Source of the DNA: Thermodesulfobacteriota bacterium
Lineage (GTDB): Bacteria; Desulfobacterota; Binatia; Bin18
Assembly (NCBI GenBank): GCA_964291405.2
Contig: OZ219926.1
Location: 1,920,001-1,984,000, forward strand
DNA length: 64,000 nt
Reading direction: 5' to 3'
The notes below the pieces were generated by a model. It worked only from the letters and a program-made list of their open reading frames with translations, searched no databases and was not told the origin of the DNA. A program made the position numbers and the translations under genes. Position 1 is the stretch's first letter; each line of letters opens with the position of its first letter. Shown here piece by piece: positions 4,548 through 54,506 of the stretch.

Positions 4548-5891
4548 ATGCTGTTTGGCTATTTTACTGAGCGGCCGTATCGGTGGGTCAACGAAGACGA
4601 GGTGCTTGAGCACCGGGGTTTCTTTGCCCTGCCCAACTCACGCTTTGACCGCGAAAAGGCGGCCGATGACTATAACTTCTTCCTGGACGAATACTGCTAT
4701 GCCGAAGAAGTCGGTTTCGATGCGCTCATGTTGAACGAGCACCACGGCAATCCCTTCTGCATGGGCAGCGTCATGAATGTCGAAGCTTCCATCCTGGCGC
4801 GGATTACCAGCAAGGCCAAGATCGTCCTGATCGGTAACCCACTGCCCGTGCTGAAGCACCCGCTACGCATGGCCGAAGAGCTGGCCGAGATTGATCTGAT
4901 CTCGCGCGGTCGTCTCGTCACCGGCTGGGTACGCGGGGCGGGCAGCGAGCAGTTCTTTAATAATGCCAACCCGGCCTATAACCGGGAGATGTTCAACGAA
5001 GCCCACGATTTCATTATCCAGGCCTGGACCAAGCCCGGTCCGTGGCGTTACGAGGGCAAGCATTTCCACTATCGGCACGTCAATCCGTGGGCGCTTCCCT
5101 ACCAAAAACCGCATCCGCAAATGTGGATTCCTGGGGTGTTGAGTCCGGAGACGGTTCACTGGGCGGCCCAGCATAACTATCCTTATCTGGCCTTGGTGAC
5201 CGCCCTGAGTCCGACCTGCGACCTGCTGGACTATTACGCCGATACCGCGGCTGAAAATGGCTATCAGGCCGGTACGGAAAATTTTGCCTATTTGATTGGG
5301 GTGTTCTGCGCGGACACGGATGAAAAAGCGCAAGAGTTGGGCAAAGGGTTTGTGTGGGGCGGCGGAGCGAGTGCGTTCTCCAGACCGGAACATACCCTCC
5401 CGCCGGGTTATAATTCCAAAAACGCCATTCGCCTGCTTGCCCAGCGTCCGAGCGGCGGCTGGGTCGGCGTTGATTCGGACCGACTCAAGGAGGCCCAGCA
5501 GGGCCGGAGGAAAAAGAAGAGCACGGACCTGGGTGAGGTTCGCCAAAAGCTGGAGAAATCGTATAAGCGCGCCCAGGACGACTACCTGATGATCGTCGGC
5601 TCGCCCAAGACGGTCATTGAGAAGATCAAGACCATGATTCGCGTGCTGCGGCCAGGGACGTTCGCCTGCTTCCAGGTTCAGGGGCCAGTCGGCAACGAAG
5701 ACCGGATGAACAGCATCCGTCTGATGGGCCAGGAGGTCATTCCCGCGGTCAAAGAATACGCCAAGGAAATCGACCTGGTCGATCAGTTCACCCGCGTACC
5801 GGGTTCGGTCAAACTCACGCCAGGGACCCGACGCCTGCCGGTCGTGGACCGCACGCCATTGAAGGACCTTGGCATGCAGTCGAAGGCGTAG
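4548..5891 (+). CDS. LLM-class flavin-dependent oxidoreductase
   Basis: LNEHH, HPLRMAEELAEIDLISRGR, PYQKPHP motifs. Confidence 0.9.
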   Translation: MLFGYFTERPYRWVNEDEVLEHRGFFALPNSRFDREKAADDYNFFLDEYCYAEEVGFDALMLNEHHGNPFCMGSVMNVEASILARITSKAKIVLIGNPLPVLKHPLRMAEELAEIDLISRGRLVTGWVRGAGSEQFFNNANPAYNREMFNEAHDFIIQAWTKPGPWRYEGKHFHYRHVNPWALPYQKPHPQMWIPGVLSPETVHWAAQHNYPYLALVTALSPTCDLLDYYADTAAENGYQAGTENFAYLIGVFCADTDEKAQELGKGFVWGGGASAFSRPEHTLPPGYNSKNAIRLLAQRPSGGWVGVDSDRLKEAQQGRRKKKSTDLGEVRQKLEKSYKRAQDDYLMIVGSPKTVIEKIKTMIRVLRPGTFACFQVQGPVGNEDRMNSIRLMGQEVIPAVKEYAKEIDLVDQFTRVPGSVKLTPGTRRLPVVDRTPLKDLGMQSKA

Positions 5892-5968
5892 GAGGTGGGA
5901 TGGGAGCGTGAATGAGCGAAGTAACTCCCTCCAGGGAGGGGATAAAACACCCTGTTAGAGAGGTGAGA

Positions 5969-6178
5969 ATGGCTATTGATGATCCGCATGTCCGGGAGCT
6001 GATTGAGAAAATCCGGCTCCTACCACCGGCCAAAGTCTCCGAGGTTGAAGACTTTGTCGATTTTCTCTGTCAGCGTAACGCCGACCGTTGCCTGAGCCAG
6101 GCGGCGACCAAGTTGTCCGAGTCAGCCTTTGCTCGGGTCTGGGACAATCCGGACGATGCCGACTATGACCAGCTATGA
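5969..6178 (+). CDS. Antitoxin (DUF2281-like) partner of the MazF toxin
   Basis: LPPAKVSEVEDFVDFL...WDNPDDADYDQL; overlaps the downstream toxin. Confidence 0.75.
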   Translation: MAIDDPHVRELIEKIRLLPPAKVSEVEDFVDFLCQRNADRCLSQAATKLSESAFARVWDNPDDADYDQL

Positions 6179-6506
6179 GTTTGGAGACATCGTCCTCGCG
6201 CCATTTCCTTTTACGGACCAAACCACAAGTAAACAGCGCCCGGCAGCGGTGGTGAGTTCATCCGCTTATAACCAAGATCGACCTGATCTCATCATTATTG
6301 CAATCACCAGTCAGGTCAGACCAACGTCCACGCTGGGAGAGGCCCACATTGTGAGCTGGAAAGCAGCCGGCCTTTTGAAACCGTCCATCATCAAACCAGT
6401 ACTGGCCACTCTCGAAAAAACGCTTATTCTCAAGAGGCTGGGCCGCTTAGGGGAACAGGATCAAAGGACTCTCCAAGAGATATTGAATGATATTCTTGGG
6501 AGCTAA
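6165..6506 (+). CDS. PemK/MazF family toxin
   Basis: GDIVLAPFPFTD..SKQRPA..VS, IAITSQ, GLLKPS. Confidence 0.9.
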   Translation: MTSYEFGDIVLAPFPFTDQTTSKQRPAAVVSSSAYNQDRPDLIIIAITSQVRPTSTLGEAHIVSWKAAGLLKPSIIKPVLATLEKTLILKRLGRLGEQDQRTLQEILNDILGS

Positions 6507-28270: not shown

Positions 28271-28828
28271 TTAGCTCTGCTCCGGTTGCTCTCTCGTGCC
28301 GTCGATCAGCACAAACGCAATCCGACACGACCGGTCCGAGCGATTGCTCCAGGCATGATTGGTACCACGCTGGACAATGACATCACCAGCTGTGACCAGC
28401 ACCTCCGAGTCGTCCAGAACCATATGGCATTCGCCCGAAAGCACAATCGCGTAATCAATCGTCTCGGTCTTGTGCATGAGTGGATGCCGTGGCTGCTCGG
28501 AGTCGTCCAGTGCCTGCTCCGCTCCGAATGAGGCGAAGCTTTCCCGGGCGGCCTTGCGGTCTATCTGATCTATCCAGTCCTTTTCCGGCGAAAACTCGAC
28601 AATCCGAAAGACCGTACCGTTGGCGGGAGGAATCAGAGCAACCGGACCCTGTGTCCGGTCGGTTGCGTCGGTCAAACTCGCGGGCGTCCCGGTTGTGGCC
28701 CACAGATTGGTGACCTCAACACCCGGCCTGTTCTTTGGGTGGAAGACTGGCGCTGAGGTGTCGGAGAGGACTGTTGCCTGCCCGTTTGTGTCGTGTCCGG
28801 TCACGATGCGTCGTGTGTTGTTCGGCAT
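28271..28828 (-). CDS. Cupin domain protein
   Basis: RRIVTGHD, MHKTETIDY, GDVIVQRGTNHAW. Confidence 0.88.
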   Translation of the reverse strand: MPNNTRRIVTGHDTNGQATVLSDTSAPVFHPKNRPGVEVTNLWATTGTPASLTDATDRTQGPVALIPPANGTVFRIVEFSPEKDWIDQIDRKAARESFASFGAEQALDDSEQPRHPLMHKTETIDYAIVLSGECHMVLDDSEVLVTAGDVIVQRGTNHAWSNRSDRSCRIAFVLIDGTREQPEQS

Positions 28829-28981
28829 GGTGGCTCCCTTCTATGATTCGAGCGCGACTCTCCGCCCACATAAGACAGCGAGAAATTGATCGATACTCTT
28901 TTCTTTGAAATGAGAGTTGGTGTAGCCTGCACCTACCTCGATAGCCCACTCCCTCAATATGACTCTGGCGGAGGAAGAGCA

Positions 28982-30025
28982 ATGCAAGGCAAAGTAATGA
29001 CCGTTCTTGGCCCAATTGAGCCCGATACTCTGGGGATTACCCTGACGCATGAGCACCTGCTCATCGATCTCCGGGTATGGTGTGAGGAGCCCGAAGAAGA
29101 GGAACAGAAGGCGTTCGTGCACGCGCCGGTCGAAATGGAAACGCTCGGCGCGATTCGCCGTGAACCATTCGGTAATCTGGATAACTGCGTCCTCGATGAC
29201 ACGGCCCTGGCTATTGAGGAGTTGCGCCGGTTTAAGACCGCCGGCGGCAGCAGCGTGGTGGACTGTACGAATAACGGCCTGGGACGCACGCCGCTGGCCT
29301 TGGCAGAAATTGCCCAGGCGACCGAGATCAATATCGTCATGGGTTCAGGCTATTATATCGGCCGTTCTCATCCCTACGACATGGTCGATCGGTCCGTTGG
29401 GATGATCGCCGATGAGATTGAATCCGATCTCATGCAGGGCGTTGCCGATACCGGGGTACGCTCCGGCCTCATCGGCGAGATCGGCACCAGCTTCAAGGTG
29501 CGCGAGAACGAACAAAAGGTCTTGCGCGCCGCCGCCCGCGCGCAGCGGCGAACCGGAGCACCGATCAGTGTCCATCTGCTGCCGTGGCAGAAAAACGGAG
29601 TCGAAGTCCTCGATATTCTTGAAGGCGAAGGCGCAAATCCGCATCAGGTCATATTATGTCATCTCAGCCCCACCAGTGATGACCTGGAATATCATACCAC
29701 TCTGGCCAAACGCGGCGCTTACGTCGAGTATGACTTCTTCGGCATGGAATTCTACGTGGACAGTGTTGGCCGCTATACGGGCTCGGACGCCGGGAGTGTC
29801 ACCGCGCTGAAACGCCTGATCGACGCAGGCTGCTTGGAGCGGCTGCTCCTGTCCCACGATATTGCGATGAAGGTCCAACTCACCCGTTACGGCGGCTGGG
29901 GCTACGCTCACCTGGTCAAGAACGTGGTGCCCATGCTGAGTCGCAGCGGACTCAGCGCCGAACAGATCGATACTTTGATCGTGGCGAACCCTCGGCGCGT
30001 GCTGACCTGGAGCGCGCCGGTGTAG
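28982..30025 (+). CDS. Phosphotriesterase-related protein
   Basis: TLTHEHL, GEIG, LLSHD, NPRRVL. Confidence 0.92.
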   Translation: MQGKVMTVLGPIEPDTLGITLTHEHLLIDLRVWCEEPEEEEQKAFVHAPVEMETLGAIRREPFGNLDNCVLDDTALAIEELRRFKTAGGSSVVDCTNNGLGRTPLALAEIAQATEINIVMGSGYYIGRSHPYDMVDRSVGMIADEIESDLMQGVADTGVRSGLIGEIGTSFKVRENEQKVLRAAARAQRRTGAPISVHLLPWQKNGVEVLDILEGEGANPHQVILCHLSPTSDDLEYHTTLAKRGAYVEYDFFGMEFYVDSVGRYTGSDAGSVTALKRLIDAGCLERLLLSHDIAMKVQLTRYGGWGYAHLVKNVVPMLSRSGLSAEQIDTLIVANPRRVLTWSAPV

Positions 30026-43526: not shown

Positions 43527-44876
43527 CTACGCGGCCTCCAACTCGGCCAACGCCTCGGCGTCGCTGACGGGCTCGGGCCTACCGTTGGCCAGGGGCCGCG
43601 AGCCGGGTTTTTTCTCAAACGGATCAACCAGCCCCAGCGTCTTGCCGTGCTCGCGCATGGCCGGAATGACGTCGCGGTTGATCAGCTCCAGACAGCGCAT
43701 CCGATCCTTGGCCGGGACCGGGCCGTCCAGCCAGAAAGAGAAGATGCCCGGACGCAGGATATCCTGGATTTTCTTGAGCTTCGGAATCACGTCGTCGGGC
43801 GTACCCGCGATCATGACCATGTCCTTGAGGACACCGGGATAGCTGTCGTAAATGGTCTTTTTGACGGCCTCGATCTCTTCGACCGTCGTTTCCCCGCCCT
43901 CACCGTACAGCGGTCCGGCAGAGGCATTGACGCCGAAGTTCGTCCGGGCCAGCCGGCGGGTCGCCGCCTTCGAGTTATAGCCCGGCGGGAACATCCACTC
44001 GGGCCGGGCAAAGTGGGCAAAGGCGCCACCGTACAGAATACGCTTACCCATTTCTTCCGCGCGCTCCTGGCTATCGGAGACCATGACCGGTTGCAGATAG
44101 CCGAAATTCTCCGGGCCGGCCTGATAGCCCTCACGGGCCGCGGCCTGGTTGTAGAAGTCCCACAGTTCCAGGGTGGGTTCGAGCCGGGTGGCGAGCGCCA
44201 CGTAGGGGTAACGGTTCTTGGCGCACCAGGACACGGTTTCCGGGCTGATGAGGCCGGGAATCCAGAACGGTGGATGGGGCTCCTGGACGGGTAGCACCCA
44301 GGGATTGACGTGCCGGAAGTGGAAGTGTTTGCCCTCATACCGGAACGGACCGGGCTTGGTCCACGACTGGACGATAAAGTCGATGCCCTCTTCAAAGTAT
44401 TCGCGATTAAAGGCCGGGTTGGCATTATTGGCAAGCTGTTCGCTGCCCGCGCCACGAACCCAGCCGGAGATCAGGCGGCCATTGGAGATCAGGTCGATCA
44501 TGGCCAGCTCTTCGGACAGCCGGAGGGCGTTCGAGACAGTGGGAACCGGGTTGCCGAGCAGAGCCATTTTGACCCGGCTGGTCGACTTGGCCAGGACCGA
44601 GGCTTCGACATCCATGACTGCGCCCAGGCAGAAGGGGTTGGCATGGTGCTCGTTGAGCATGATGCCGTCAAAGTTCATCAGCTCCTGGTCGGTGTAGATC
44701 TTCTCATCGAGATACTGGTTGAGCAGCCGCACGCCGTGCTTGCGGTCAAAAAAGCTGTTCGGCGTGCCGAAAAAGCTGCGTTTGCGAATGATCTCGTTTT
44801 CGAGGTCGCGGTATTGCTCAGGATGTTCCTCCGGGTCGTAGTGATACGCACGTTCCGTAAACCACATGAAATGCAT
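43527..44876 (-). CDS. LLM-class flavin-dependent oxidoreductase (paralogue of 4548-5891)
   Basis: Shared NEHH.NPFC, WVRGAGSEQ, YEGKHFH and PPGYNSK segments. Confidence 0.9.
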   Translation of the reverse strand: MHFMWFTERAYHYDPEEHPEQYRDLENEIIRKRSFFGTPNSFFDRKHGVRLLNQYLDEKIYTDQELMNFDGIMLNEHHANPFCLGAVMDVEASVLAKSTSRVKMALLGNPVPTVSNALRLSEELAMIDLISNGRLISGWVRGAGSEQLANNANPAFNREYFEEGIDFIVQSWTKPGPFRYEGKHFHFRHVNPWVLPVQEPHPPFWIPGLISPETVSWCAKNRYPYVALATRLEPTLELWDFYNQAAAREGYQAGPENFGYLQPVMVSDSQERAEEMGKRILYGGAFAHFARPEWMFPPGYNSKAATRRLARTNFGVNASAGPLYGEGGETTVEEIEAVKKTIYDSYPGVLKDMVMIAGTPDDVIPKLKKIQDILRPGIFSFWLDGPVPAKDRMRCLELINRDVIPAMREHGKTLGLVDPFEKKPGSRPLANGRPEPVSDAEALAELEAA

Positions 44877-45078
44877 AGTCCGTCCTCCTACTGTGAAAAA
44901 ATTAGAAATATAAGAGACGGGCGGATGAGGCAAGAGGAAATCTGATCGGGTAGTGGTTCAGTTTGAAATCTTTTTCTTACGGGATTCCTTAGTTTAAGCC
45001 CCTGATTCTCGACCGTTCTTGACAACCTATTTTCTCTTCTGCATTTTTACGCCCATCTTGCATCGGAGAGGGAACTGC

Positions 45079-45477
45079 ATGAGAAGATGGAAATATCTCG
45101 GACTGATCGGACTCCTGCTTGTCCTGCACGGCTGTTCGGTCGGGATGGCCATGTCTGGACGGCCTGACCCGAATACCGGCGCATTGCGGGTCGGGCAGGC
45201 CCGCGATGAAGTCTTGTTACATTTGGGACAACCGACACAGACCTATGCTACGGAGACGGGCCGGACGGATACCTTGCATCTACAACGCGGGAACCAGCCC
45301 TCCACGGGCCGGGCGGTCGGCCATGCAGTCATGGATGTCTTGACACTAGGAGCCTGGGAGATCATTGGGACACCGGTGGAAGGATTTACAGGCGAAAAGT
45401 TCACGATCTCGGTCTCCTACGACAAAGAAGAGCGAGTCACAAAGATTGCGACCGCGCCAGGAGTTCCTGAATTTTAA
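45079..45477 (+). CDS. Lipoprotein
   Basis: Lipobox LHGC after a basic/hydrophobic signal; RAVGHAVMDVLTLGAWEIIGTPVE. Confidence 0.75.
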   Translation: MRRWKYLGLIGLLLVLHGCSVGMAMSGRPDPNTGALRVGQARDEVLLHLGQPTQTYATETGRTDTLHLQRGNQPSTGRAVGHAVMDVLTLGAWEIIGTPVEGFTGEKFTISVSYDKEERVTKIATAPGVPEF

Positions 45478-45501
45478 CCTTACCCCTCATCAAATGGCAG
45501 A

Positions 45502-45626
45502 ATGAGCACGTTTGGCGACGATCTGATCCAGTCTCTTAATGAGGCCCTCGCCCACGCAAAGGGCAATGGTCCTGCCATTCTTCACACTGTTGTGACTCCG
45601 CGCGAGGTTCGGAAGCAAGCGAACCT
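45502..45626 (+). pseudogene. N-terminal part of an interrupted HigA-like HTH antitoxin
   Basis: MSTFGDDLIQSLNEALAHAKG...TPREVRKQANL; the remainder is at 50111-50299. Confidence 0.8.
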
Positions 45627-45754
45627 TCGGGTTCGACAAGTTCCGCCTGCTGCCAGAAGGTCTCGTCCAACTCGGGAATATCGCTGAAGTCGATGTCCTC
45701 ATCCTCCGTGGCCGCGATTTGTCGTGGGGTGAGGGGTTTATCGTATCCGCTCAT
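45627..45754 (-). pseudogene. Truncated BrnA-type antitoxin
   Basis: DEDIDFSDIPELDETFWQQA BrnA N-terminal motif, cut at the island boundary. Confidence 0.7.
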
Positions 45755-45770
45755 GGTAAGCCTGCCTTCG

Positions 45771-46007
45771 TCATCCGGCGTCATCTTTCCCGATCCACTC
45801 ACGGAGCGCCTGGTCAATCCGTGTCTGCCATCCACGACCACCGGCCTTGAAGTAATCGATCACGTCCTGCGACAGACGGATAGTCGTTGACACTGTCGGT
45901 TTGGCGACCGGCGGCCTGCCACGGCGGACGGTCGCCGTGGCGAACTTCTCCGGCCAGCCGTCCCCGGACAGGTCTGGTGCCGTATCCCGATCAAAATCTT
46001 GTGGCAT
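45771..46007 (-). CDS. BrnA antitoxin family protein (orphan)
   Basis: RGRPP......TIRLSQDVIDYFKAGGRGWQTRIDQALR. Confidence 0.88.
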   Translation of the reverse strand: MPQDFDRDTAPDLSGDGWPEKFATATVRRGRPPVAKPTVSTTIRLSQDVIDYFKAGGRGWQTRIDQALREWIGKDDAG

Positions 46008-46293
46008 AGAGCGTTCATTCCGGTACTGGCTGAATTCGGTCACTCGGGCTCAAGCGCAGCCATTCGGGGTGATTTGAGTGGTGGCGTTTGAATGGGGGGA
46101 GTGGCTGCGTTTGGGTCGTGGGAGGGGGTGGGACGGATTCAACCTATCTTTTCCCAGTTCCCCACGGGATTGACGGAGACGGCCCAAACGAATAGGGTCT
46201 GCCCGCCAAAAATAGTATATAGATTTCCCTTCCATTCTGCACAAAGTAGGCGCTATTCCTTTAGGACCTCAACCATTTCTCTTTCCGTCATGG

Positions 46294-46325
46294 GCGCGCG
46301 GGCGGTCGTCCAACCGCCCGCGCGC
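46294..46325 (-). terminator. 13-bp GC hairpin just downstream of the secreted-protein gene
   Basis: GCGCGCGGGCGGT-N6-ACCGCCCGCGCGC; no U-tract. Confidence 0.5.
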
Positions 46326-46331
46326 TGGTCG

Positions 46332-48944
46332 TTATTCAACATCCACAATCTGGAAGTTCTGCGAAGCTTGGTGCCATTGCAGAATGACCGTGGTGCCCGG
46401 TTCAGGAAAATCCTCCACCCGCACCCGTTCACTCTCCACGTCCTCCAGAAACTCCTCATCAGAAATACGGATCACTTCCATGAGGTTCGTGTCCGGGGTG
46501 AAGGTTCCATCATCGGCTTCCCAGCCGATTTGCTGGCGGCCCACAAAAGCCCGGACGTTATAGAGACCCGCGTCCAAATGATTCAAATTGAAGGTACCGC
46601 CAAAGCCAAAACCGTGGTCCGGTTTCGGGTTACATTCCTCGGCGCGTGTCACATCGGCGCGTGGCGAGCCATAGGGCACGATGAACGCGGGAACCGCCAG
46701 ACGGTTGCGGCGTTGGTCACGAATCTCGATCCGTACGCCATTGCCATCATCCTGACAGACCCACCCGCGCACCATCACCACCCCACTGCGGATGTCGTCG
46801 TGGCCGGGTTCTTCCAAGACGCCGTGGGGGTCGGGGTCGATTTCGGTATCGGTGTCCGTGTCGGTGTCCGTAACCGGCGGTCGGGTCGTGGGCTCCTCGA
46901 CGGTGACATCCTCGGCAAAGTTGGCGGTCAGATCATAGCTCCCTTCCGTCGTGCCGGTTTGTCCCTCGACTTCCAGCAGATAAAGGCCAGGGGTCACATT
47001 GGCCGCAATGCGGAAATTGTTGTCGGACCCGCCATTATCATTCAATTGGATAGGAGTACCGTCTGGTCCATACAGCGTGGCCTTCACGTCGATCCCACCG
47101 GTACTCTGAAGATATAGCGCCCCTGCGGAGGTGACCTCGAACAGATACCGATTGCGGTCTTTTTCGGCGTTGGTACCTTGAGGGTCGATGGTTTGCCCCG
47201 TCAGAATACGTGTCGGCTGGACACTGGTATCAGTCCCGTCCACGACGGCATCGAAACGGAAACTGATCCCGTAGCTCCCATCTTTAGTGCTGGTCACGTG
47301 GACCAAATGCGGCATGTCCGCTTGTACGGGCACAGCAAACCGGAAATGGGGTGTGCGCGTATCTGTCGCAATCTGGCCGCGTGCCCCATAGAGCGCTCCT
47401 TGTGTTTGGGCAATCGGCGTTGTGGCACCATCTACCCCTCTGACGGTTAGCCAGCCAGCCTTGCCGGGTGTAAAGACAAATACGTCCTGATCCGCTTGAT
47501 TATTGTCTTCAGACCGACGTGCAATCGACAACTCCGTGTCATCATCCAGGACGGTTCCAGTCCAAGCGGGCGCAGGCTCGACCGTCACATCGGTGATTCC
47601 AGCAGTAAACATGGCAACTGCGAATGCCACATCCAGGGTGTAACGACCAGTGATATGGTCTTCTTGGCCCGCGACTCGCAGGGTATAGGCGGTATCCTGT
47701 TGCAATATTGGTACGGCCATTACGAAATTGCCGCTCGTGCCTCCGTCCTCCGCCACGATATTCATGCGATTAGCGACAGGACCCGTTGCTCCGACAAGCG
47801 TCCCTTTTGTATCCGTTTGGCCTGTGGTCTTCAGGGTCAGCAGTCCGGGGGCGGTGACGGTCAGACTATGGGAGACCACGGCTCCCCGGCTGCTGATGTC
47901 GCCCTGTCGGCCCGGCAGGGCGTCCGAGAGGACTCCATGGAACTGAACAACCAAATCGGGGGCGGGTAAGTTTGGATTCCCGTCGATGTTGGGCCGGAGG
48001 GAATTCAGCGTCGGTGTATCTGGGTCCGATTGGACGGTCACAAGAATATACTCGCCTTCCCCGGAGTTAACTGTGGCCCGAAGTTCTAAGCCTTCATGAG
48101 GGTCTTCGCTGATTGCTTCCGCTACCAAAGTAGCCGCTGCCTCTGCCAACCAGCCAGCCACCCCCGTTCCACCGTCACGGTTCGAGTTGATGGTTCCCAG
48201 GTCGCTGATTTCCATATCCGGGGTATTGTCCTTGGCGTTAGTGGAAGAAGTCGTCCCTTGGCCCTTAACCGTTTCCGCGTTTGTCTGCATGGTCCCCGCA
48301 AGTCCCCTTCTGTCGGCGGGAGCAGTTGCCCGTTCCCCCCTATCAGCACTCTCCAGGGCTTTTGAGGCGTTATCGAGGGCCGTGGCAGCCGTCCGCAACG
48401 CTGTGCGGGCATTGTCCTCGGCCTGGCTGGGATTTGGATTCGTCGTCCTATCTCTGAGGGCCGCAGCATCTGTCGCCGCCTTGACGGCAGCATCAGCTGC
48501 GTCAAAGGCTTTCTTCGCCGCACTTTCCTCGGCGATATGGTCGGACGTATAGGTCGTTTTGTAGCGAGCGCGTTCACTGGAACCGTAGCACAGCACCGCA
48601 TCGACCGGTGCCCCATCAGTGGAAAATACCCGCAATTCTCCCGCAGCTAACTGCGGGACGGTAATCTTGGTGTAGCGATAACGTGTGTTTCCCTCCCCAC
48701 TCTCCCCTGTGCCTCGTTTGCTTTCATCATCATCAGTATTCAGCATGGGGGTGATCGTGGCCACGCCCGATCCTGGGGTAATTGCAAAAGTCGCCTCTGG
48801 TGCACTGGCGGTGCCAAAAAAGTCGTTATCCGGCAGCCCTCTACACCCCGGCAGCGCCTGCGTATGCGCCCACACATGTCCACTCAACCCGAGCCACAGG
48901 ACGCCCCCCACGACTCCACCGATGATCTGCTGGTATTTCCTCAT
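46332..48944 (-). CDS. Large secreted protein (870 aa) with PPC-like beta repeats, an Ala-rich helical insert, a TD/DP linker and a C-terminal Ig-like domain
   Basis: RBS GAGAGGAGG and signal peptide MRKYQQIIGG...VWA; repeated G.L...T.G..D..G.L....D.GG...NF units. Confidence 0.75.
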   Translation of the reverse strand: MRKYQQIIGGVVGGVLWLGLSGHVWAHTQALPGCRGLPDNDFFGTASAPEATFAITPGSGVATITPMLNTDDDESKRGTGESGEGNTRYRYTKITVPQLAAGELRVFSTDGAPVDAVLCYGSSERARYKTTYTSDHIAEESAAKKAFDAADAAVKAATDAAALRDRTTNPNPSQAEDNARTALRTAATALDNASKALESADRGERATAPADRRGLAGTMQTNAETVKGQGTTSSTNAKDNTPDMEISDLGTINSNRDGGTGVAGWLAEAAATLVAEAISEDPHEGLELRATVNSGEGEYILVTVQSDPDTPTLNSLRPNIDGNPNLPAPDLVVQFHGVLSDALPGRQGDISSRGAVVSHSLTVTAPGLLTLKTTGQTDTKGTLVGATGPVANRMNIVAEDGGTSGNFVMAVPILQQDTAYTLRVAGQEDHITGRYTLDVAFAVAMFTAGITDVTVEPAPAWTGTVLDDDTELSIARRSEDNNQADQDVFVFTPGKAGWLTVRGVDGATTPIAQTQGALYGARGQIATDTRTPHFRFAVPVQADMPHLVHVTSTKDGSYGISFRFDAVVDGTDTSVQPTRILTGQTIDPQGTNAEKDRNRYLFEVTSAGALYLQSTGGIDVKATLYGPDGTPIQLNDNGGSDNNFRIAANVTPGLYLLEVEGQTGTTEGSYDLTANFAEDVTVEEPTTRPPVTDTDTDTDTEIDPDPHGVLEEPGHDDIRSGVVMVRGWVCQDDGNGVRIEIRDQRRNRLAVPAFIVPYGSPRADVTRAEECNPKPDHGFGFGGTFNLNHLDAGLYNVRAFVGRQQIGWEADDGTFTPDTNLMEVIRISDEEFLEDVESERVRVEDFPEPGTTVILQWHQASQNFQIVDVE

Positions 48945-49654
48945 GCCGTCCTCCTCTCGCGTCCGTTTTGTTTGCCTTGCCCTGCCTTGCCTGGCCCTGT
49001 TTCGCCATGCCATGCCCCTGCCGCGCCTTGCCTCGCCCCGCCCCGCCCAGAACCGTTGACTGGTGCAATACTCACCAGCGCAAACCGGCCAAAATCTCCG
49101 GACTTCTCCGGCCGCCAATCCCCGAGCCCGATGCGGCGCCCCGCGATGGTCAGCCACTGTTCCAGTTGAGAGGCGTCTACTAACTCGTCGTCCGCCTCTA
49201 CCACAAACGTCACGCCCCACTCGTCAAACTTGGCGCGCGTGCGCGGAATGCGGTTACGTTGAATGACCACATTGGTAGTGAACTGCACGGTCTTGCCCAG
49301 TTCTTCCATTGTGGTCCCGAGGGTGCGGTCATAGGAGAATTCTTCAATCTCCTCGACCAACAAGCCTTCTCTCACCTGCGGCCCCTGCTTGAGCTTGCGG
49401 GCCGCCGTCTCGATGCATGAGCGCAGCGCTGCGGCGGGGATTGTCGGGATGCCGCTCTTATCGAGCCACAGGCTCGTCTGACACTCCAATTCCTGCAACC
49501 GCTCCTCATCATGAATGGTGCGATCACGGCCGCGCCTCTTGGCAATCTCGTCCTTCTCCTTGTTGGCCGGGGAGCGTTTGTCGAGGCCCGCTTGACTATT
49601 GTGCATAATCAGCGGTCGCCGGCCGTCCAGACATATCCGGTAACGCTGCATCAT
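48941..49654 (-). CDS. Solitary Cas7/RAMP-like protein (Vipr-like)
   Basis: RAMP-like YRICLDGRRPLIMH, IPAAALRSCI, RAKFDEW, and G-rich loop AGRRIGLGDWRPEKSGDFGRF; RBS GAGGAG. Confidence 0.75.
   Translation of the reverse strand: MMQRYRICLDGRRPLIMHNSQAGLDKRSPANKEKDEIAKRRGRDRTIHDEERLQELECQTSLWLDKSGIPTIPAAALRSCIETAARKLKQGPQVREGLLVEEIEEFSYDRTLGTTMEELGKTVQFTTNVVIQRNRIPRTRAKFDEWGVTFVVEADDELVDASQLEQWLTIAGRRIGLGDWRPEKSGDFGRFALVSIAPVNGSGRGGARQGAAGAWHGETGPGKAGQGKQNGRERRTA
48974..49049 (-). repeat. GGC-NN pentamer array (15 units); candidate guide-like ncRNA
   Basis: tgGGC ggGGC ggGGC gaGGC aaGGC gcGGC aggGGC atGGC atGGC gaAAC agGGC caGGC aaGGC agGGC aaGGC, then A-rich AAACAAAAC. Confidence 0.85.
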
Positions 49655-49667
49655 CCGCGTCTCCTCT

Positions 49668-49796
49668 TCACGTCGAGAGTCCCGGCGGGGTGCCGGGCCG
49701 TGTCAACTGCACAACCGTGAGGTAATGTCTCACTTTGAAGCTTATGACCAGAAAAAATGGGGCAGTCCGCCCTCTCCCCAGCTCCCTCTCAGGCAT
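49668..49796 (-). CDS. Possible 42-aa leader ORF or gene remnant upstream of the Cas7-like gene
   Basis: RBS GAGAGGAG; its stop abuts the next RBS. Confidence 0.3.
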   Translation of the reverse strand: MPERELGRGRTAPFFLVISFKVRHYLTVVQLTRPGTPPGLST

Positions 49797-49914
49797 CGTG
49801 TTCTCCTCTCGGCTTCGAGCCCACGCGTTCGTCCGCTGATGACGAATGTTTATGTTCTCTTTTACAATGTCTTATAGATATAGTTTTGCTTATAAATCAC
49901 GTCTGGAAGACGCT

Positions 49915-49944
49915 ATACTATTACTGATAAAGATATATTGTCAA
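49915..49944 (-). promoter_or_regulatory. Sigma70-type promoter for the Cas7-like operon
   Basis: TTGACA-N18-TAGTAT in an AT-rich patch. Confidence 0.6.
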
Positions 49945-50035
49945 TAAACTATCCCCATCAGACTGTTCGCCTAACATAGTGGTCTATCCATACTGGTCTT
50001 GAACCGCGAGGCGGGTATGAATGACCGAGAGCTGT

Positions 50036-50110
50036 TAGGGGGTGTCGTCAGTTAAGGAGGATCACCGAAGCGGCGAGGTAAATGGCGCCGAGGAAGCTGC
50101 TGGCGCGTTT
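50036..50110 (-). mobile_element. IS5-family remnant (transposase C-terminus plus terminal end)
   Basis: Minus strand reads KRASSFLGAIYLAASVILLN* followed by CGACACCCCCTA. Confidence 0.7.
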
Positions 50111-50299
50111 ACCCCACGCGAGGTTCGGAAGCAGGCGAACCTGACGCAAGCTCAGATGGCACCACTGATGGGCATGAGCCTGTCCGGCTACCGGAAATGG
50201 GAACAGGGGACACGGCGGGTCAGCGGCCCGGCCGCTACCCTGCTGCGTGTGCTCGAAAGGGAGCCGGAGGCGGTCAAGCGTGCATTGCTTGGCTCATAA
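50111..50299 (+). pseudogene. C-terminal (HTH) part of the HigA-like antitoxin
   Basis: VRKQANLTQAQMA..MGMS....RKWEQG.R.VSGPAATLL. Confidence 0.8.
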
Positions 50300-50384
50300 G
50301 GACGGCTGACCGGGACCATCTGATACAAAACCGGGATATAAATCCTCATTATGAGAAGAGGCCATAGTAGCTATTACAGCTCTC

Positions 50385-50636
50385 ATGAAAGAAATGGCTG
50401 CCAGGGACGCCAAGAACCGCTTTAGCTATTTGCTGGATGCCGTGCAGAGGGCGCCCGTGCGTGTGACCAGGAAAGGCAGAGCGGTCGGCGTGATGATGTC
50501 GGTGCAACACTATGAGCGCCTTCGCGGCGCTGCCTGGGAACGTCTGACGATGACGATGGACGCTTTGGGAGAGGAGGCATCCGCGAGCGGCTTGACGGAG
50601 GCCAAGCTCAAGGCGCTTCTCGCGGATAAGAACTGA
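50385..50636 (+). CDS. Phd/YefM antitoxin (orphan)
   Basis: AARDAKNRFSYLLDAVQRAPVRVTRKGR; no toxin follows. Confidence 0.85.
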   Translation: MKEMAARDAKNRFSYLLDAVQRAPVRVTRKGRAVGVMMSVQHYERLRGAAWERLTMTMDALGEEASASGLTEAKLKALLADKN

Positions 50637-50662
50637 GACTATCGTTCCCGACACCAATTAGT

Positions 50663-50693
50663 CCACAATACGTACCTCGTGCCCGCTGCATAC
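50663..50693 (-). repeat. Direct repeat copy (orphan 3' end of the EthD gene, VCSGHEVRIVD*)
   Basis: 30/31 identical to 51498-51528. Confidence 0.9.
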
Positions 50694-50761
50694 GCCTGTA
50701 AGGTCATTGTCCCACAAGGCACTACGGTCTATTGTAGCCGTAGTGGTTCACCTTGAGGGAT

Positions 50762-51007
50762 ATGATGCACGAGGTTCAATTACGCGACGCAAAGGCTAGA
50801 CTCTCAGCGCTGGTAGAAGGTGCGGCCCATGGAGAGACGACGATCATCACTCGCTACGGCAAACCTCGGGCCGTCATCCTTGGAATCGATGAGTGGAATC
50901 GTCTCTGCAAAGTGCCGTCCTTTGGCCGATTGCTGCTCTCTGCACCACTGGAGGACGGGGACCTGCCGCCGCGTGACATGAGCCCGTCACGGGACGCGGC
51001 ACTCTAG
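50762..51007 (+). CDS. Phd/YefM antitoxin
   Basis: LRDAKARLSALV..A..GE..IITRYGKP.AV; upstream inverted repeat CACTACGG/CCGTAGTG. Confidence 0.9.
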   Translation: MMHEVQLRDAKARLSALVEGAAHGETTIITRYGKPRAVILGIDEWNRLCKVPSFGRLLLSAPLEDGDLPPRDMSPSRDAAL

Positions 51008-51016
51008 GAACGATTC

Positions 51017-51457
51017 TTGTACCTGGTCGATACCAATGTACTGTCGGTTGGGGCTCCCGGCCGGGTGGGTCGGTCCACGACATTGATCGACTGGATGGAG
51101 ACGCATTCGAGCAGGCTTTTCCTGTCGGTCGTCACCGTGGCCGAGATTGCCGACGGGGTGGCCAAGCTGAAACGGACCAGGTCCGCCGCCAGGGCTGCTG
51201 CCATTGAGGACTGGCTCCAACTTGTGCTCCGTCTCTATGGCAGTCGCGTGCTGGCATTTGATGCTGCCGCAGCCCGGCTGGCGGGGGAACTGACAGATAA
51301 GGCGCGAGCGGCGGGTCATGCTCCTGGCTTTGCCGATATCGCCATCGCGGCTACAGCCGAAAGCCATGGCCTGACGATCCTGACGCGCAACCTGCGCCAC
51401 TTTATGCCGCTCGGCGTCCCGGCAACCGATCCCTTTGCTGGATTACCCCGCTCCTGA
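51017..51457 (+). CDS. VapC/PIN toxin
   Basis: YLVDTNVLS, SVVTVAEI, DIAIAATA, LTRNLRHF. Confidence 0.92.
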   Translation: MYLVDTNVLSVGAPGRVGRSTTLIDWMETHSSRLFLSVVTVAEIADGVAKLKRTRSAARAAAIEDWLQLVLRLYGSRVLAFDAAAARLAGELTDKARAAGHAPGFADIAIAATAESHGLTILTRNLRHFMPLGVPATDPFAGLPRS

Positions 51458-51492
51458 CAACAAGCAGGACCATCTCATATTACTGAGGGCCA

Positions 51493-52161
51493 TCAGCCCA
51501 CAATACGCACCTCGTGCCCGCTGCATACCAGCATGGGCTCGACCAGCTCGCCGAAACCGTCCGGCTCATAGCCCTGGATGTCGGCGAAGGTGGCGTTGGG
51601 GTGATCGATGCAGATTTGCGCCACACCGTCGTAGGCGCGCTCTCGCTTAGCATCGTCCAGGGCAACCAGGTCCACGGAATAACGCACCGCGTCCGGCGTA
51701 TTATTGATGGCCGCGACAACGTTCGGCACATGGACGTTCAGCCAGTAGTCGTCCAGATGGGCGCGCTCAATGCCCTGGCGTCGCTTGATAAAGAAGACGA
51801 GCTTGGTGGTGTCGCGGGTCGTCGGCCCGTCAACGTTGAGATGCTCGGTCACAAACAGATTGCAGCCCGGCTGTATGGTGGCATAGGTGCTGAATTTGTC
51901 GGCGTCGATATTGGGTGGGGCCTGCTGGCCGATCGTAGTCTCAAAATGTTCCCTGTCCCGGAACCACAACTCGGCCATACCGTCCGGCGGACGGCTGTCC
52001 GCATCGGCACCGTCCGAGGGCGGATCAAAGAAGGTGATGCGATAGCGTTCCGGCTTGACCAGCGAAACAACGTGCGGGGCGTGCACATGCTCCCAGACGT
52101 GCACCAACTCGTCATGCGAAACATGCTCCAGACGCCGAACAGCGCCCATAAACTTTAACAT
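51493..52161 (-). CDS. EthD domain-containing protein (two domains)
   Basis: W..VHAP, DGMAELWF; second copy YWLNVHVP, YDGVAQ. Confidence 0.8.
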   Translation of the reverse strand: MLKFMGAVRRLEHVSHDELVHVWEHVHAPHVVSLVKPERYRITFFDPPSDGADADSRPPDGMAELWFRDREHFETTIGQQAPPNIDADKFSTYATIQPGCNLFVTEHLNVDGPTTRDTTKLVFFIKRRQGIERAHLDDYWLNVHVPNVVAAINNTPDAVRYSVDLVALDDAKRERAYDGVAQICIDHPNATFADIQGYEPDGFGELVEPMLVCSGHEVRIVG

Positions 52162-52171
52162 GGGTTCCTCC

Positions 52172-53026
52172 TTAGAAGCGTGCCTGGGGTACGGGCAGCC
52201 CAGGGATATCCGAACGCGTCCGAAAGACGCTGCCCTTGAGCTCGCGTTGATCGTTGTTGGCGGTGACCACGTACAGGTCCGACATGTCGGGCCCGCCAAA
52301 GGCCACGCTGGTGACCGTTTTGGCCGGCACCTTAATGCGTTGATCGACCGTGCCGTCCGGCTTGAAGCGTACGATTTCACCCCGCCCGGCCACCGTGGCG
52401 ACCCACACTCCGCCTTCGACATCAACGGTCATGCCGTCGGGCATGCCCTCGGGGAGCTGCGCGAACAGTTGGCGGTCACTGACCGTGCGGTCGGCCCGCA
52501 CCTCATAGGCCCAGACGGCCTTGGTGGTGGAATCACAGTGGTAGAGCAGCTTGCGGTCCGGACTGAAGCCCAGGCCGTTGGTCACCTCGACCCCCTCCCA
52601 GAGGTGCGTCACCTGGCCCGGCGGGTCAATGCGGAAGAGCGAGCCCGGTGGCGGCGTACTCTTGAAATCAAAGGTATGAATATCGCAGCCAAACGAACCG
52701 ACCCAGATACTGCCCTGGTCATCCATGGTGAGGTCGTTCAGGCCGAACAGCGGCTTTCCCTGCCATTCGGCAAAGATATCCCGCAGCGCGCCGGACTGCT
52801 CATCCCAGTGCGCCAGAGACAGACCCGTCACCAGGATGCCGCCGCCCGCGTTCAAGGCGATGCCGCCAACAAACTTCCGATCCGCTATTAAGGTTTCAAT
52901 CTCGCCGTTGGGGCTGCGCCGGAAGACACCGCCGCCGCGCACATCGCTGTAATAGAGCCGATTCTGCTCATCGGTCCGTGGCCCCTCAACGAGTCCGTAG
53001 CCGCTGGCCAAGGTTTCGAATTCCAT
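52172..53026 (-). CDS. SMP-30/gluconolactonase family protein
   Basis: EGP, NGLGFSPD, PDGMTVD, TSVAFGG. Confidence 0.92.
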   Translation of the reverse strand: MEFETLASGYGLVEGPRTDEQNRLYYSDVRGGGVFRRSPNGEIETLIADRKFVGGIALNAGGGILVTGLSLAHWDEQSGALRDIFAEWQGKPLFGLNDLTMDDQGSIWVGSFGCDIHTFDFKSTPPPGSLFRIDPPGQVTHLWEGVEVTNGLGFSPDRKLLYHCDSTTKAVWAYEVRADRTVSDRQLFAQLPEGMPDGMTVDVEGGVWVATVAGRGEIVRFKPDGTVDQRIKVPAKTVTSVAFGGPDMSDLYVVTANNDQRELKGSVFRTRSDIPGLPVPQARF

Positions 53027-53183
53027 ACGCTCCCTCCTTGTGTGTGGCCGCCCTCGTGAACAGCCGCCTGATGGGGCGAGGGTAATAGCTCCGAGGACGG
53101 AAGACAATGGGCGGGCGGCCACAGACAAAGCCGCCGACTTTGTATAAGGTGCGCCTCTACATCTGTCATCACGACACTATCCG

Positions 53184-54506
53184 ATGCGGCAAAAAGAATT
53201 TCCCTTTTATTATGGTTGGGCGGTGGTGGCCGTGGCCTTTATTACGCTGGCCATTGGCGTGAACACGCGCACGACCTTTTCCTTGTTGTTTCCGCCCATT
53301 CTGGAGGAATTCGGTTGGGACCGGGGCAGTACGGCCGCGGCCTTTTCTTGCGGTTTTCTGGCGGCAACCGTGTACGCTCCCATGGTCGGTATGCTCATGG
53401 ATCGCTGGGGACCGCGCCTGGTTATCCCGCTGGGTGCGGTGCTGGTCAGCAGCGGCATGGTGGCGATTACCCTGGTTTCTCAGCCGTGGCACCTGTATCT
53501 CACCTTCGGCATCCTGGTTGGTGGCGCGAGTACCTCCATCAGCTATCTCGGTCACTCCCTGTTTTTACCCTACTGGTTTGTACGGCGCCGTGGCCTGGCC
53601 CTGGGGATTGCCTTTTCCGGGGTGGGTGTCGGTTCCATTCTGCTCTTTCCGTGGATCCAAAGCATTATTGACCAGGCCGGCTGGCGTGAGGCGTGTTGGG
53701 TGGTGGCTGGGACCCTGATAGTGATCGTGTTTCCGTTGAACGTGATCCTGCAACGCCGGCGGCCCGAGGACCTCGGCTTGGCACCCGACGGAGACCACGC
53801 CCCGCACGCTGCTCACGGTGCGCAGCGCCCGGCTGACAATATCGTGGACCACGCCTGGGCCGCAACGGATTGGACCCTGGCCCGCGCCATACGCACCTCC
53901 CGTTTCTGGTGGCTGGGCGCCGCTTTCTTCAGCAGTCTGTACGCCTGGTACGCCATCCAGGTGCATCAAACCAAATACCTGACCGATAGCGGCTTTTCAT
54001 CCGAGGCGGCGGCCTTTGCCCTGGGCTTGGTTGGACTGACCTCCTGTGGCGGTCAGATTGGGCTGGGCCTGCTCTCCGACCGAATCGGACGTGAATGGGT
54101 CTGGACTATCAGCATGATGGGTTTTGTCCTGTGCTACGTCATCCTGCTCGGCATGCCTGAGCAGCCCAGTCTGGTGCTGTTATACGCCATGGTCGCGGCC
54201 CAGGGCGTATTGGGCTACGGGACTGTCTCGGTGTTCGGAGCCATCCCAGCCGAGATTTTTCAGGGCAAACAGTACGGCCGCATCTACGGCACGCTGACCA
54301 TTGCCGGCAGTCTGGGCGGCGGGACCGGGCCCTGGGTGACCGGTCTGCTCTTTGACCGCACCGGGAGTTATACGGTTGCCTTCTGGATTGCGCTGGCGTT
54401 TGCCTTTATCTCCATTGGCAGCATGTGGATGGCCGGTCCGCGCAAGGTGCGTGTGGTGGCCGGTCAGGTGAAGCATCTGGCCGCGCGGCGGGCTCTGGCG
54501 GAATAG
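53184..54506 (+). CDS. MFS transporter (OFA-like)
   Basis: About 12 hydrophobic segments, DRWGPR, SDRIGR. Confidence 0.92.
   Translation: MRQKEFPFYYGWAVVAVAFITLAIGVNTRTTFSLLFPPILEEFGWDRGSTAAAFSCGFLAATVYAPMVGMLMDRWGPRLVIPLGAVLVSSGMVAITLVSQPWHLYLTFGILVGGASTSISYLGHSLFLPYWFVRRRGLALGIAFSGVGVGSILLFPWIQSIIDQAGWREACWVVAGTLIVIVFPLNVILQRRRPEDLGLAPDGDHAPHAAHGAQRPADNIVDHAWAATDWTLARAIRTSRFWWLGAAFFSSLYAWYAIQVHQTKYLTDSGFSSEAAAFALGLVGLTSCGGQIGLGLLSDRIGREWVWTISMMGFVLCYVILLGMPEQPSLVLLYAMVAAQGVLGYGTVSVFGAIPAEIFQGKQYGRIYGTLTIAGSLGGGTGPWVTGLLFDRTGSYTVAFWIALAFAFISIGSMWMAGPRKVRVVAGQVKHLAARRALAE

Follow-up and report, generated by a model that had tools for sequence, protein, structure and literature searches.

A chromosomal VIPR cassette in Candidatus Binatia apparently aimed at the translation start of a host paralogue of its cargo gene

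Here, we describe a small RNA-guided cassette in a 64,000-nucleotide (nt) stretch of the chromosome of a Thermodesulfobacteriota bacterium of the Candidatus Binatia (GenBank assembly GCA_964291405.2, contig OZ219926.1, positions 1,920,001 to 1,984,000; hereafter, the window). On the minus strand, at positions 48974 to 49049, the window carries an array of 15 NNGGC units within the 3' end of an open reading frame (ORF) for a protein of 237 amino acids (aa). According to our sequence comparisons, this array is almost certainly the repeat tract of a VIPR vrRNA, and the neighboring gene encodes the protein Vipr. Comparisons at this level establish the family membership, the repeat code, the target matches, and the convergence of several guides on one operon. 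What appears to be new is a nuclease-free chromosomal VIPR apparently aimed at the translation start of the host's sister copy of its cargo gene. Taken as a whole, the statement that the array is a VIPR guide with the cassette role proposed below is, in our judgment, likely.

VIPR systems, which are relatives of CRISPR, were described in 2026 preprints, the main texts of which present them both as a weapon in phage-phage conflict and as a host defense (10.64898/2026.04.26.720920, 10.64898/2026.04.26.720927). As described there, Vipr is a minimal RAMP protein (RRM core, G-loop, and thumb), and the vrRNA comprises 9 to 16 YNNGG repeats plus a 3' tail. One Vipr protomer per repeat grips the bases GGY, and the resulting filament presents the two variable bases (NN), which pair with double-stranded DNA with one target base skipped per unit; the outcome is that binding blocks transcription, i.e., transcriptional silencing (10.64898/2026.04.26.720920, 10.64898/2026.04.26.720927). 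An accessory vap gene with a DNA-related function is “typically” present, and the catalog of 664 to 667 systems is divided into types I to VII (10.64898/2026.04.26.720920). In the main texts, the published guides are aimed at mobile elements, namely, phages, satellites, prophages, or other VIPR loci (10.64898/2026.04.26.720920, 10.64898/2026.04.26.720927, 10.64898/2026.10.15.759431), and we found no statement there, supplementary target tables aside, on the targeting of host paralogues.

The array and its partner gene

Read on the minus strand from 49049 to 48974, the array is TGGGC GGGGC GGGGC GAGGC AAGGC GCGGC AGGGGC ATGGC ATGGC GAAAC AGGGC CAGGC AAGGC AGGGC AAGGC, followed by AAACAAAAC. GGC is present in 14 of the 15 units, one GAAAC stays in register, one unit (AGGGGC) has 6 nt, and the variable bases read TG GG GG GA AA GC AG(+1) AT AT GA AG CA AA AG AA. 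A preliminary description of the array, made from the sequence alone, was exact on all of these points. The array is far beyond chance. The four-unit GGCNN pattern GGCNNGGCNNGGCNNGGC occurs five times in the window, every time within the array; in 100 dinucleotide-preserving shuffles of the window, its mean count is 0.05, and no shuffle reaches 5. A six-unit pattern has a single occurrence in the whole 4.95-Mb genome, at the array, and its reversed control has none. Tandem Repeats Finder reports a period of 5 at 48972-49037 (13 copies, 66% matches) and at 49014-49048. Contigs from three of four sequencing runs cover the array, with no difference listed in 48974-49049, so that NN showed no strain variation. 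Among 24 runs listed, no RNA run contains the stretch.

For the two irregular units, decay had been suggested as one possibility. This explanation holds for the degenerate unit 10 (48999-49003, minus strand), in which GGC has decayed to AAC, evidently recently, as the corresponding unit is GAGGC in the related locus L016 and GAAGC in L015. It does not hold for the 6-nt unit 7 (49014-49019, minus strand), the position of which is kept in orthologues as AGGTGC or AGGCGC and which is therefore not random decay. The ribosome-binding site of the downstream gene lies in the 3' flank of the tract (AAACAAAACGGACGCGAGAGGAGGACGGC; 48945-48973, minus strand), which showed no conserved or stable structure. 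A search of positions 44000 to 54000 against Rfam returned only a chance-level snoRNA match (E value, 0.62).

The gene that contains the array, vipr (48941-49654, minus strand), encodes a protein with no family in Pfam, NCBIfam, or PADLOC that matches the profile phrog_4652 (E value, 1.5e-29); the profile stops at residue 193, ahead of the array. In the record of the phage SUSP1, the protein finds the gene at 28474-29061 (E value, 1.5e-13), which is flanked upstream and downstream by NNGGT arrays and matches the published description of Vipr. BLASTP aligns the window protein with SUSP1 Vipr at 26% identity over 194 columns (E value, 2e-17). The GGY-contact residues H17, R138, D177, W178, and R179 of the published structure (10.64898/2026.04.26.720927) align to H18, R140, D179, W180, and R181, and none of the five varies among the 20 aligned homologues. 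K33, which is paired with D35 in the alignment, is not conserved. By tblastn, the vipr family is present in 129 phage records.

Structure prediction agrees with this assignment. The AlphaFold2 model of the protein has a predicted local distance difference test (pLDDT) score of 83.8, with residues 204 to 231, the array-encoded tail, below 50. A Foldseek search against the PDB gave 69 matches at E values of ≤0.001 (best, 3.6e-6), headed by Csm3, Cmr4, and type VII Cas7, with TM scores of 0.45 to 0.54 for the top matches. The model thus has a minimal RAMP/Cas7-like fold, the Cas7-like domain being predicted to span residues 1 to ~195 (49654-~49070) and the C-terminal ~40 residues to be read-through of the tract. 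We found 904 homologues, most of them 197 to 200 aa long. The ratio of nonsynonymous to synonymous substitution rates (dN/dS) of vipr against six orthologues, 0.05 to 0.15, indicates that the gene is under strong purifying selection. A TRAP-like array of RNA-binding sites, a phage cos/pac site, and a small-RNA sponge were also considered for the array and dropped, as the fold search and the VIPR papers explain the period.

Arrays in related loci

The related-locus set comprises 82 homologue-encoding loci, 80 from genomes and 2 viral, which come from Candidatus Binatia, Dehalococcoidia/Chloroflexota, Alphaproteobacteria, Vicinamibacterales, and one gammaproteobacterial metagenome-assembled genome (MAG). 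Same-strand arrays accompany the homologous genes: of the runs with 5 or more NNGGC units, 119 lie on the gene strand and 4 on the opposite strand, and three control motifs yield 1 to 2 runs. Such a run is found in 59 of the 82 loci, and nearly all runs fall within ~1.2 kb after the gene; at the distant homologue L010, one array precedes the gene and four follow it in tandem. Over 1,617 units from 192 distinct runs, the entropy of NN is 3.8 of 4 bits, GGY being fixed by the search pattern. The units are not homogenized, and the preliminary description was right in setting the array apart from a slippage microsatellite.

The Binatia clade is an exception to this hypervariability, since its first 7 to 8 NN are conserved. 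The first eight NN are identical between the window and L018 despite a dS of 2.6 and a third-position identity of 46% in vipr. With the synonymous sites of vipr saturated, the 5' NN are, on this comparison, conserved beyond the neutral expectation. Identical NN in distant homologous loci had been named beforehand as a sign against information content. The first 7 to 8 NN are indeed near-identical in orthologues, and in more distant loci the NN are unrelated; the near-identity of the 5' NN points to a conserved target rather than to a lack of information.

The only other conserved neighbor of vipr in the set is a small HNH-like ORF, which lies upstream of the gene in 64 of the 82 loci by clustering and in 57 by motif. 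In many loci (L023 to L038 and others, ~5430-6260), this ORF (CxxC...HH...CxxCH) continues for ~85 codons across the vipr start in a second frame, so that the vipr ATG falls inside it. The array ends also vary: flanks differ among orthologues, and the arrays of many other clades terminate with NNGGA and a short motif or with a hairpin. Single arrays often close with a purine at the Y position (AGGGA, GAGGA, or AAGGA). Since the Y pocket of Vipr excludes purines in the published structure as described in the main text (10.64898/2026.04.26.720927), such a terminal unit may mark the end of the filament. In Chloroflexota loci (L056, L058, L066, L076, and others), many arrays are chained by short delimiters, e.g., GAGGACATC or AGGGAAATC. 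Some Vicinamibacterales MAGs carry four to five copies of the vipr module (L075, L077, L079, L080, and L082; L078, L081, L083, and L092). These copies extend over 0.9 to 2.9 kb at 84 to 99% identity in otherwise different contexts, which suggests that the module has recently been mobile.

A predicted target at the start of A2

The full-length guide did not lead to a target. In its own genome, the best score of the 15 units is 21/30 at a 1-nt skip, no better than at other skips, and at ≤3 mismatches there is no match in 401 genomes of the class. In viral contigs, a seed from units 8 to 15 gave 76 matches with a best extension of 9/14, which is chance level, and a seed from units 1 to 8 gave 9 matches with a best extension of 6/14. 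In metagenome contigs, a seed from units 1 to 10 gave one match (22/30), on a contig of 38% G+C without further match. When 63 guides, drawn from all loci, were compared with ~1 Mb of fetched loci (arrays masked) at ≥85%, skips of 0, 1, 2, and 3 nt gave 0, 1, 3, and 0 matches, with no enrichment.

Because the Binatia orthologues share their first 7 to 8 NN although vipr is saturated, the conserved half-guide was searched instead. Its key matches in the genus fall on the Shine-Dalgarno sequence, the ATG, and the first codons of a secreted-protein gene, here called A2. The site in the genome of the window (G000:C3:975146-975103, minus strand) lies ~994 kb from the guide and covers GGGGGAGAG and the A2 ATG. 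Under a 1-nt skip, units 1 to 6 and 8 to 9 match 16/16, and unit 7 (0/2) is the only mismatched unit among units 1 to 9. Units 1 to 6 plus 8 to 9 have this single exact site in the genome, whereas only 2 of 400 permutations of unit order give any exact site; at skips of 0, 2, and 3 nt, no exact site is found in the genome. The preliminary description had regarded the 6-nt unit as a possible boundary between subguides, which is contradicted by the match continuing in register across unit 7 to units 8 and 9.

The site recurs in relatives of the host. Among the 28 genomes covered at the genus level, the A2 site region is present in 12, including 6 of the 8 that carry vipr. The guide of genome G015 matches its own A2 site 16/16 over units 1 to 8, which is its only match in that genome. 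The guide of the window scores 25/30 against the A2 allele of genome G017, the best random score in its own genome being 21/30. This allele (L188, G017:C1 ~3567846), the best fit to the window guide, has an open frame of only 54 codons and may be a broken gene. A genome-by-genome comparison of guide unit 6 (GC or GA) with the site (ATGCA or ATGAA) could not show covariation. The search for gapped NN patterns that had been proposed at the outset thus yielded, with one skipped base, a unique match in the guide's own genome and converging matches for related guides. Together with the Vipr homologue adjoining the array, this unique match supports the initial view that NN carry the information and that GGC is a fixed scaffold.

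Convergence of related guides on the A1-A2 operon

Guides of different NN lead to the same place. The guide of G010 matches 16/16 in the 5' untranslated region (UTR) of A1, which immediately precedes A2; this match is present in four of five genomes, with no control matches. Units 2 to 11 of the guide of G002 match 19/20 over a TTGACA-17-TATGGT site upstream of A1, ~160 nt further up than the G010 site, with one match in each of four of five genomes and no control matches; the full-length G002 guide has no match at ≤3 mismatches. The guide of L040 matches 12/12 on the antisense strand of the signal-peptide codons of A2 (a match made without a control set), and, by our reading, three further units past two degenerate ones again match in register (6/6). 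Of the 11 guides tested against A-locus regions, 10 score highest at a 1-nt skip, and the three mapped sites in G000 lie within 2.5 kb of the 4.95-Mb genome. Closely related Binatia loci are not independent, and these guides represent at least four independent guide families.

A1 and A2 follow a type II secretion cluster (GspF, GspL-like, GspM, and the GspD secretin). None of the 10 ORFs neighboring A1-A2 matched a phage or integrase family. The stretch from the secretin gene to A1 (G000:C3:980700-981700; L186, positions 1 to 90) contains repetitive sequence; a ~50- to 80-nt repeat of L186 matches dozens of places in the genome of the window.

The cargo gene and the neighborhood of vipr

Directly downstream of the array lies the cargo gene (46332-48944, minus strand), the ATG of which overlaps the TGA of the vipr ORF. 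It encodes a protein of 870 aa whose N-terminal segment resembles a signal peptide (judged by eye) and which belongs to no Pfam family, and it is a paralogue of A2 (33% identity; E value, 1e-54). A protein-atlas search with the cargo protein gave weak leads only (scores of ≤0.82), to PPC or glycan-binding-like domains. Its C-terminal ~160 aa (46332-46850), which have no Pfam family, have 27 further tblastn matches elsewhere in the genome, several of them in tandem.

The same arrangement holds across the clade: by tblastn, a paralogue of the guide's target gene lies beside vipr in 10 of 10 Binatia loci. All eight loci with A2-type guides carry an A2-type gene, and L017, which is cut at the end of vipr, shows no match. 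In L015, L016, L018, and L019, the gene follows the guide; in L014, L035, and L040, it immediately precedes vipr. Where the guide is of the A1 type (L020 and L021), both loci have a gene of the A1 type. The neighbor of vipr in G007 is 36% identical to A2 over its full length, and that in G010 is 47% identical to A1 (E value, 5e-135). In the sequences of these Binatia loci, guide type pairs with paralogue type.

Upstream of vipr, an AT-rich noncoding leader (49828-50039, minus strand) is 84% identical to that of L018, while vipr is 72% identical. Scanning the leader gave three promoter-like sites, compared to 0.6 in shuffles. One of them, at 49915-49944 on the minus strand (TTGACA, a 16- to 18-nt spacer, and AATAGT/TAGTAT), is a candidate promoter of a vipr-vrRNA-cargo transcript. 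A terminator-like hairpin with a T run lies at 49772-49760 within the leader region. Just upstream of the cassette, Pfam identifies an HTH_3/MqsA-like gene (50042-50299, plus strand) and a Phd/YefM-PIN toxin-antitoxin pair (50753-51007 and 51017-51457, both plus strand). Where the HTH gene region ends, 75 nt (50036-50110) are 87% identical to two copies in L040 (7612-7686 and 10574-10500), which are inverted and ~3 kb apart; these copies may be the ends of a mobile element. The neighborhood resembles a variable island lying between metabolic genes.

Weight of the evidence and alternative readings

Several observations weigh against a guide aimed at A2. The half-guide search over 55 genomes of the family gave 22 matches versus 15 for the reversed control, with no overall enrichment, and its six key matches represent one homologous site in the genus rather than independent events. 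The own-genome A2 site scores 20/30 overall, with 4/12 in units 10 to 15; in its main text, the VIPR paper used an 80% NN match (10.64898/2026.04.26.720920), below which this score falls, making the own-site match a weak one. Leaving unit 7 free was a post hoc choice, made after the match had been seen; without it, we estimate that a 16/18 match is expected by chance in about one genome in five, and with any one of the nine units left free, the estimated chance is ~0.05. Given this choice, the case rests on the location of the site and on the other guides. The NN are G rich and similar to Shine-Dalgarno sequences, and the skipped bases at the A2 site fall at codon position 2, while those of most targets in the published main text fall at the wobble position (10.64898/2026.04.26.720920). 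That text also reports no self-targeting on the guides' own contigs, and the guide of G013 finds no target in five genomes. As for the system itself, we detected no structured 3' tail, as the 60 nt that follow the array fold no better than shuffles (z score, −0.26), although the published 3' pseudoknot tail is described only for the SUSP1 clade (10.64898/2026.04.26.720920). No accessory gene of the published kinds was found either, the HNH-like ORF being absent from the window and from the 10 Binatia loci.

Some of these points fit a different account, in which the array is a VIPR vrRNA with a natural target in a foreign phage or mobile element outside the collections searched, and the A-locus matches are by-products without regulatory effect, e.g., from shared ancestry of elements. 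In its main rival variant, the real targets are alleles in other strains or elements. Phages, satellites, and prophages are what the VIPRs of the published main text target (10.64898/2026.04.26.720920), and the allele of another strain fits the window guide better (25/30) than the own-genome site does (20/30). However, none of the viral or metagenome matches continues past its seed, the 10 scanned neighbors of A1-A2 include no recognized integrase or phage gene, the guides of G015, G010, and G002 match their own genome's site 16/16, 16/16, and 19/20, and a single host operon next to a type II secretion cluster is hit by four different guides. We regard a foreign target as improbable. A decaying, nonfunctional VIPR relic would explain the GAAAC unit, which lost GGC, and the 6-nt unit, which gained a base, as well as the missing HNH-like gene and structured tail. 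It is hard to reconcile with the low dN/dS of vipr, its fully intact GGY-contact residues, the 5' NN conserved beyond the neutral expectation, and the conserved position of the 6-nt unit, and we consider it very unlikely.

Two accounts dispense with a guide altogether. The array could simply encode a C-terminal tail, rich in glycine, alanine, and arginine, of the 237-aa protein, as the frame is open through it up to the TGA at the next ATG, and L003, L008, and L009 also read through. Among same-genus orthologues, however, the stop codon precedes the array in L005, L006, and L007, falls within it in L004, and follows it in L002, L003, L008, and L009. This variable position indicates that the array is kept as nucleotide sequence rather than as protein and bears out the earlier remark that codon structure does not explain the 5-nt period, which reflects no codon constraint. 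Moreover, the family profile ends before the tail, the tail is predicted to be disordered, and other arrays precede the gene or form tandem sets that have no open frame; a coding role seems exceedingly unlikely. No more credible is a protein-binding or structural repeat that guides nothing, be it a slippage microsatellite, a G-quadruplex tract, or a TRAP-like array with NN as spacers. The strict 5-nt period and the G-rich strand would fit such a repeat, but the units are not homogenized (NN entropy, 3.8 bits), the partner protein is a Vipr homologue, and the NN of four guides match one operon at a 1-nt skip and not at skips of 0, 2, and 3 nt.

Proposed role and relation to known systems

Reading the array as a guide aimed at A2, we propose that vipr, its one vrRNA, and the adjacent secreted-protein gene would form a chromosomal cassette in which the guide, through its conserved 5' units, spells out the ribosome-binding site and the start codon of A2. 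The guide RNA would be made and processed and then bound by Vipr, and binding of the complex at the A2 start region would repress the resident A2. The cassette's own paralogue would be cotranscribed with the guide while the resident copy is silenced. We lean toward this A2-silencing role on the basis of the sequence matches. The HNH-like gene is missing precisely in the clade with guides that match its own chromosome, a loss that would fit silencing rather than cutting. The A1- and A2-type exoproteins are probably substrates of the neighboring type II secretion system.

More broadly, it is an evenly poised possibility that the sponge-associated Binatia have turned VIPR into a “replace and silence” cassette for RNA-guided paralogue exclusion or expression switching on their own chromosome. 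Each cassette would combine a variant exoprotein gene of the A1 or A2 type with a nuclease-free RNA-guided silencer, programmed against the promoter, the 5' UTR, or the start codon of the resident copy. If true, VIPR can be domesticated for the control of endogenous genes, the cassette is a natural example of start-site and promoter targeting by VIPR, and the system may serve the switching of secreted proteins in sponge symbionts. It also supplies, for an unculturable lineage, a guide-target pair that is simple and open to testing.

The closest known system is the type II VIPR of SUSP1 (vipr, YP_009199429.1; vap1; four vrRNAs). The two share a homologous Vipr with the same GGY-contact residues, 9 to 16 YNNGG repeats on the gene strand, specific matches under the 1-nt-skip reading, and the lack of a nuclease, from which silencing rather than cutting is expected here. 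They differ in several respects. Y is C in the window and T in SUSP1, and the window has a single guide, overlapped by the vipr reading frame, with no vap1-like gene and no structured pseudoknot tail found. In addition, the system is chromosomal in a Candidatus Binatia genome rather than on a phage, its guide is conserved among species rather than hypervariable, and its predicted target is a host paralogue in the same genome rather than a satellite phage. The host-encoded VIPR types III and V are described in the main text as lying in defense islands with nuclease accessory genes, some with a single vrRNA (10.64898/2026.04.26.720920). The window resembles them in its chromosomal location, its single vrRNA, and the toxin-antitoxin genes nearby, and the HNH-like ORF upstream of vipr in 57 of the 82 related loci fits these nuclease-associated types. 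In contrast, the window and all 10 Binatia loci are without the HNH-like gene, and their guides match their own chromosome rather than viral sequence.

Vipr has the same fold as the Cas7, Csm3, and Cmr4 subunits of class 1 CRISPR systems, and the main text on its structure describes it as acting like them, with one protomer per guide repeat interval and a thumb that periodically interrupts pairing (10.64898/2026.04.26.720927). The guide differs from that of class 1 CRISPR systems in being a scaffold of 5-nt repeats, of which two bases in five are read, rather than a spacer. Among six ORFs neighboring the array, Pfam matched no Cas family, only toxin-antitoxin and HTH families; no search for a CRISPR array was made. 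CRISPR machinery can also repress endogenous genes, as in Francisella, where Cas9 with scaRNA represses lipoprotein genes. The window would share with this case a defense-type RNA-guided DNA binder aimed at the 5' region of the host's own exported-protein gene. The protein family and the guide logic are different, and in the Binatia cassette the putative silencer travels with the replacement paralogue of its target.

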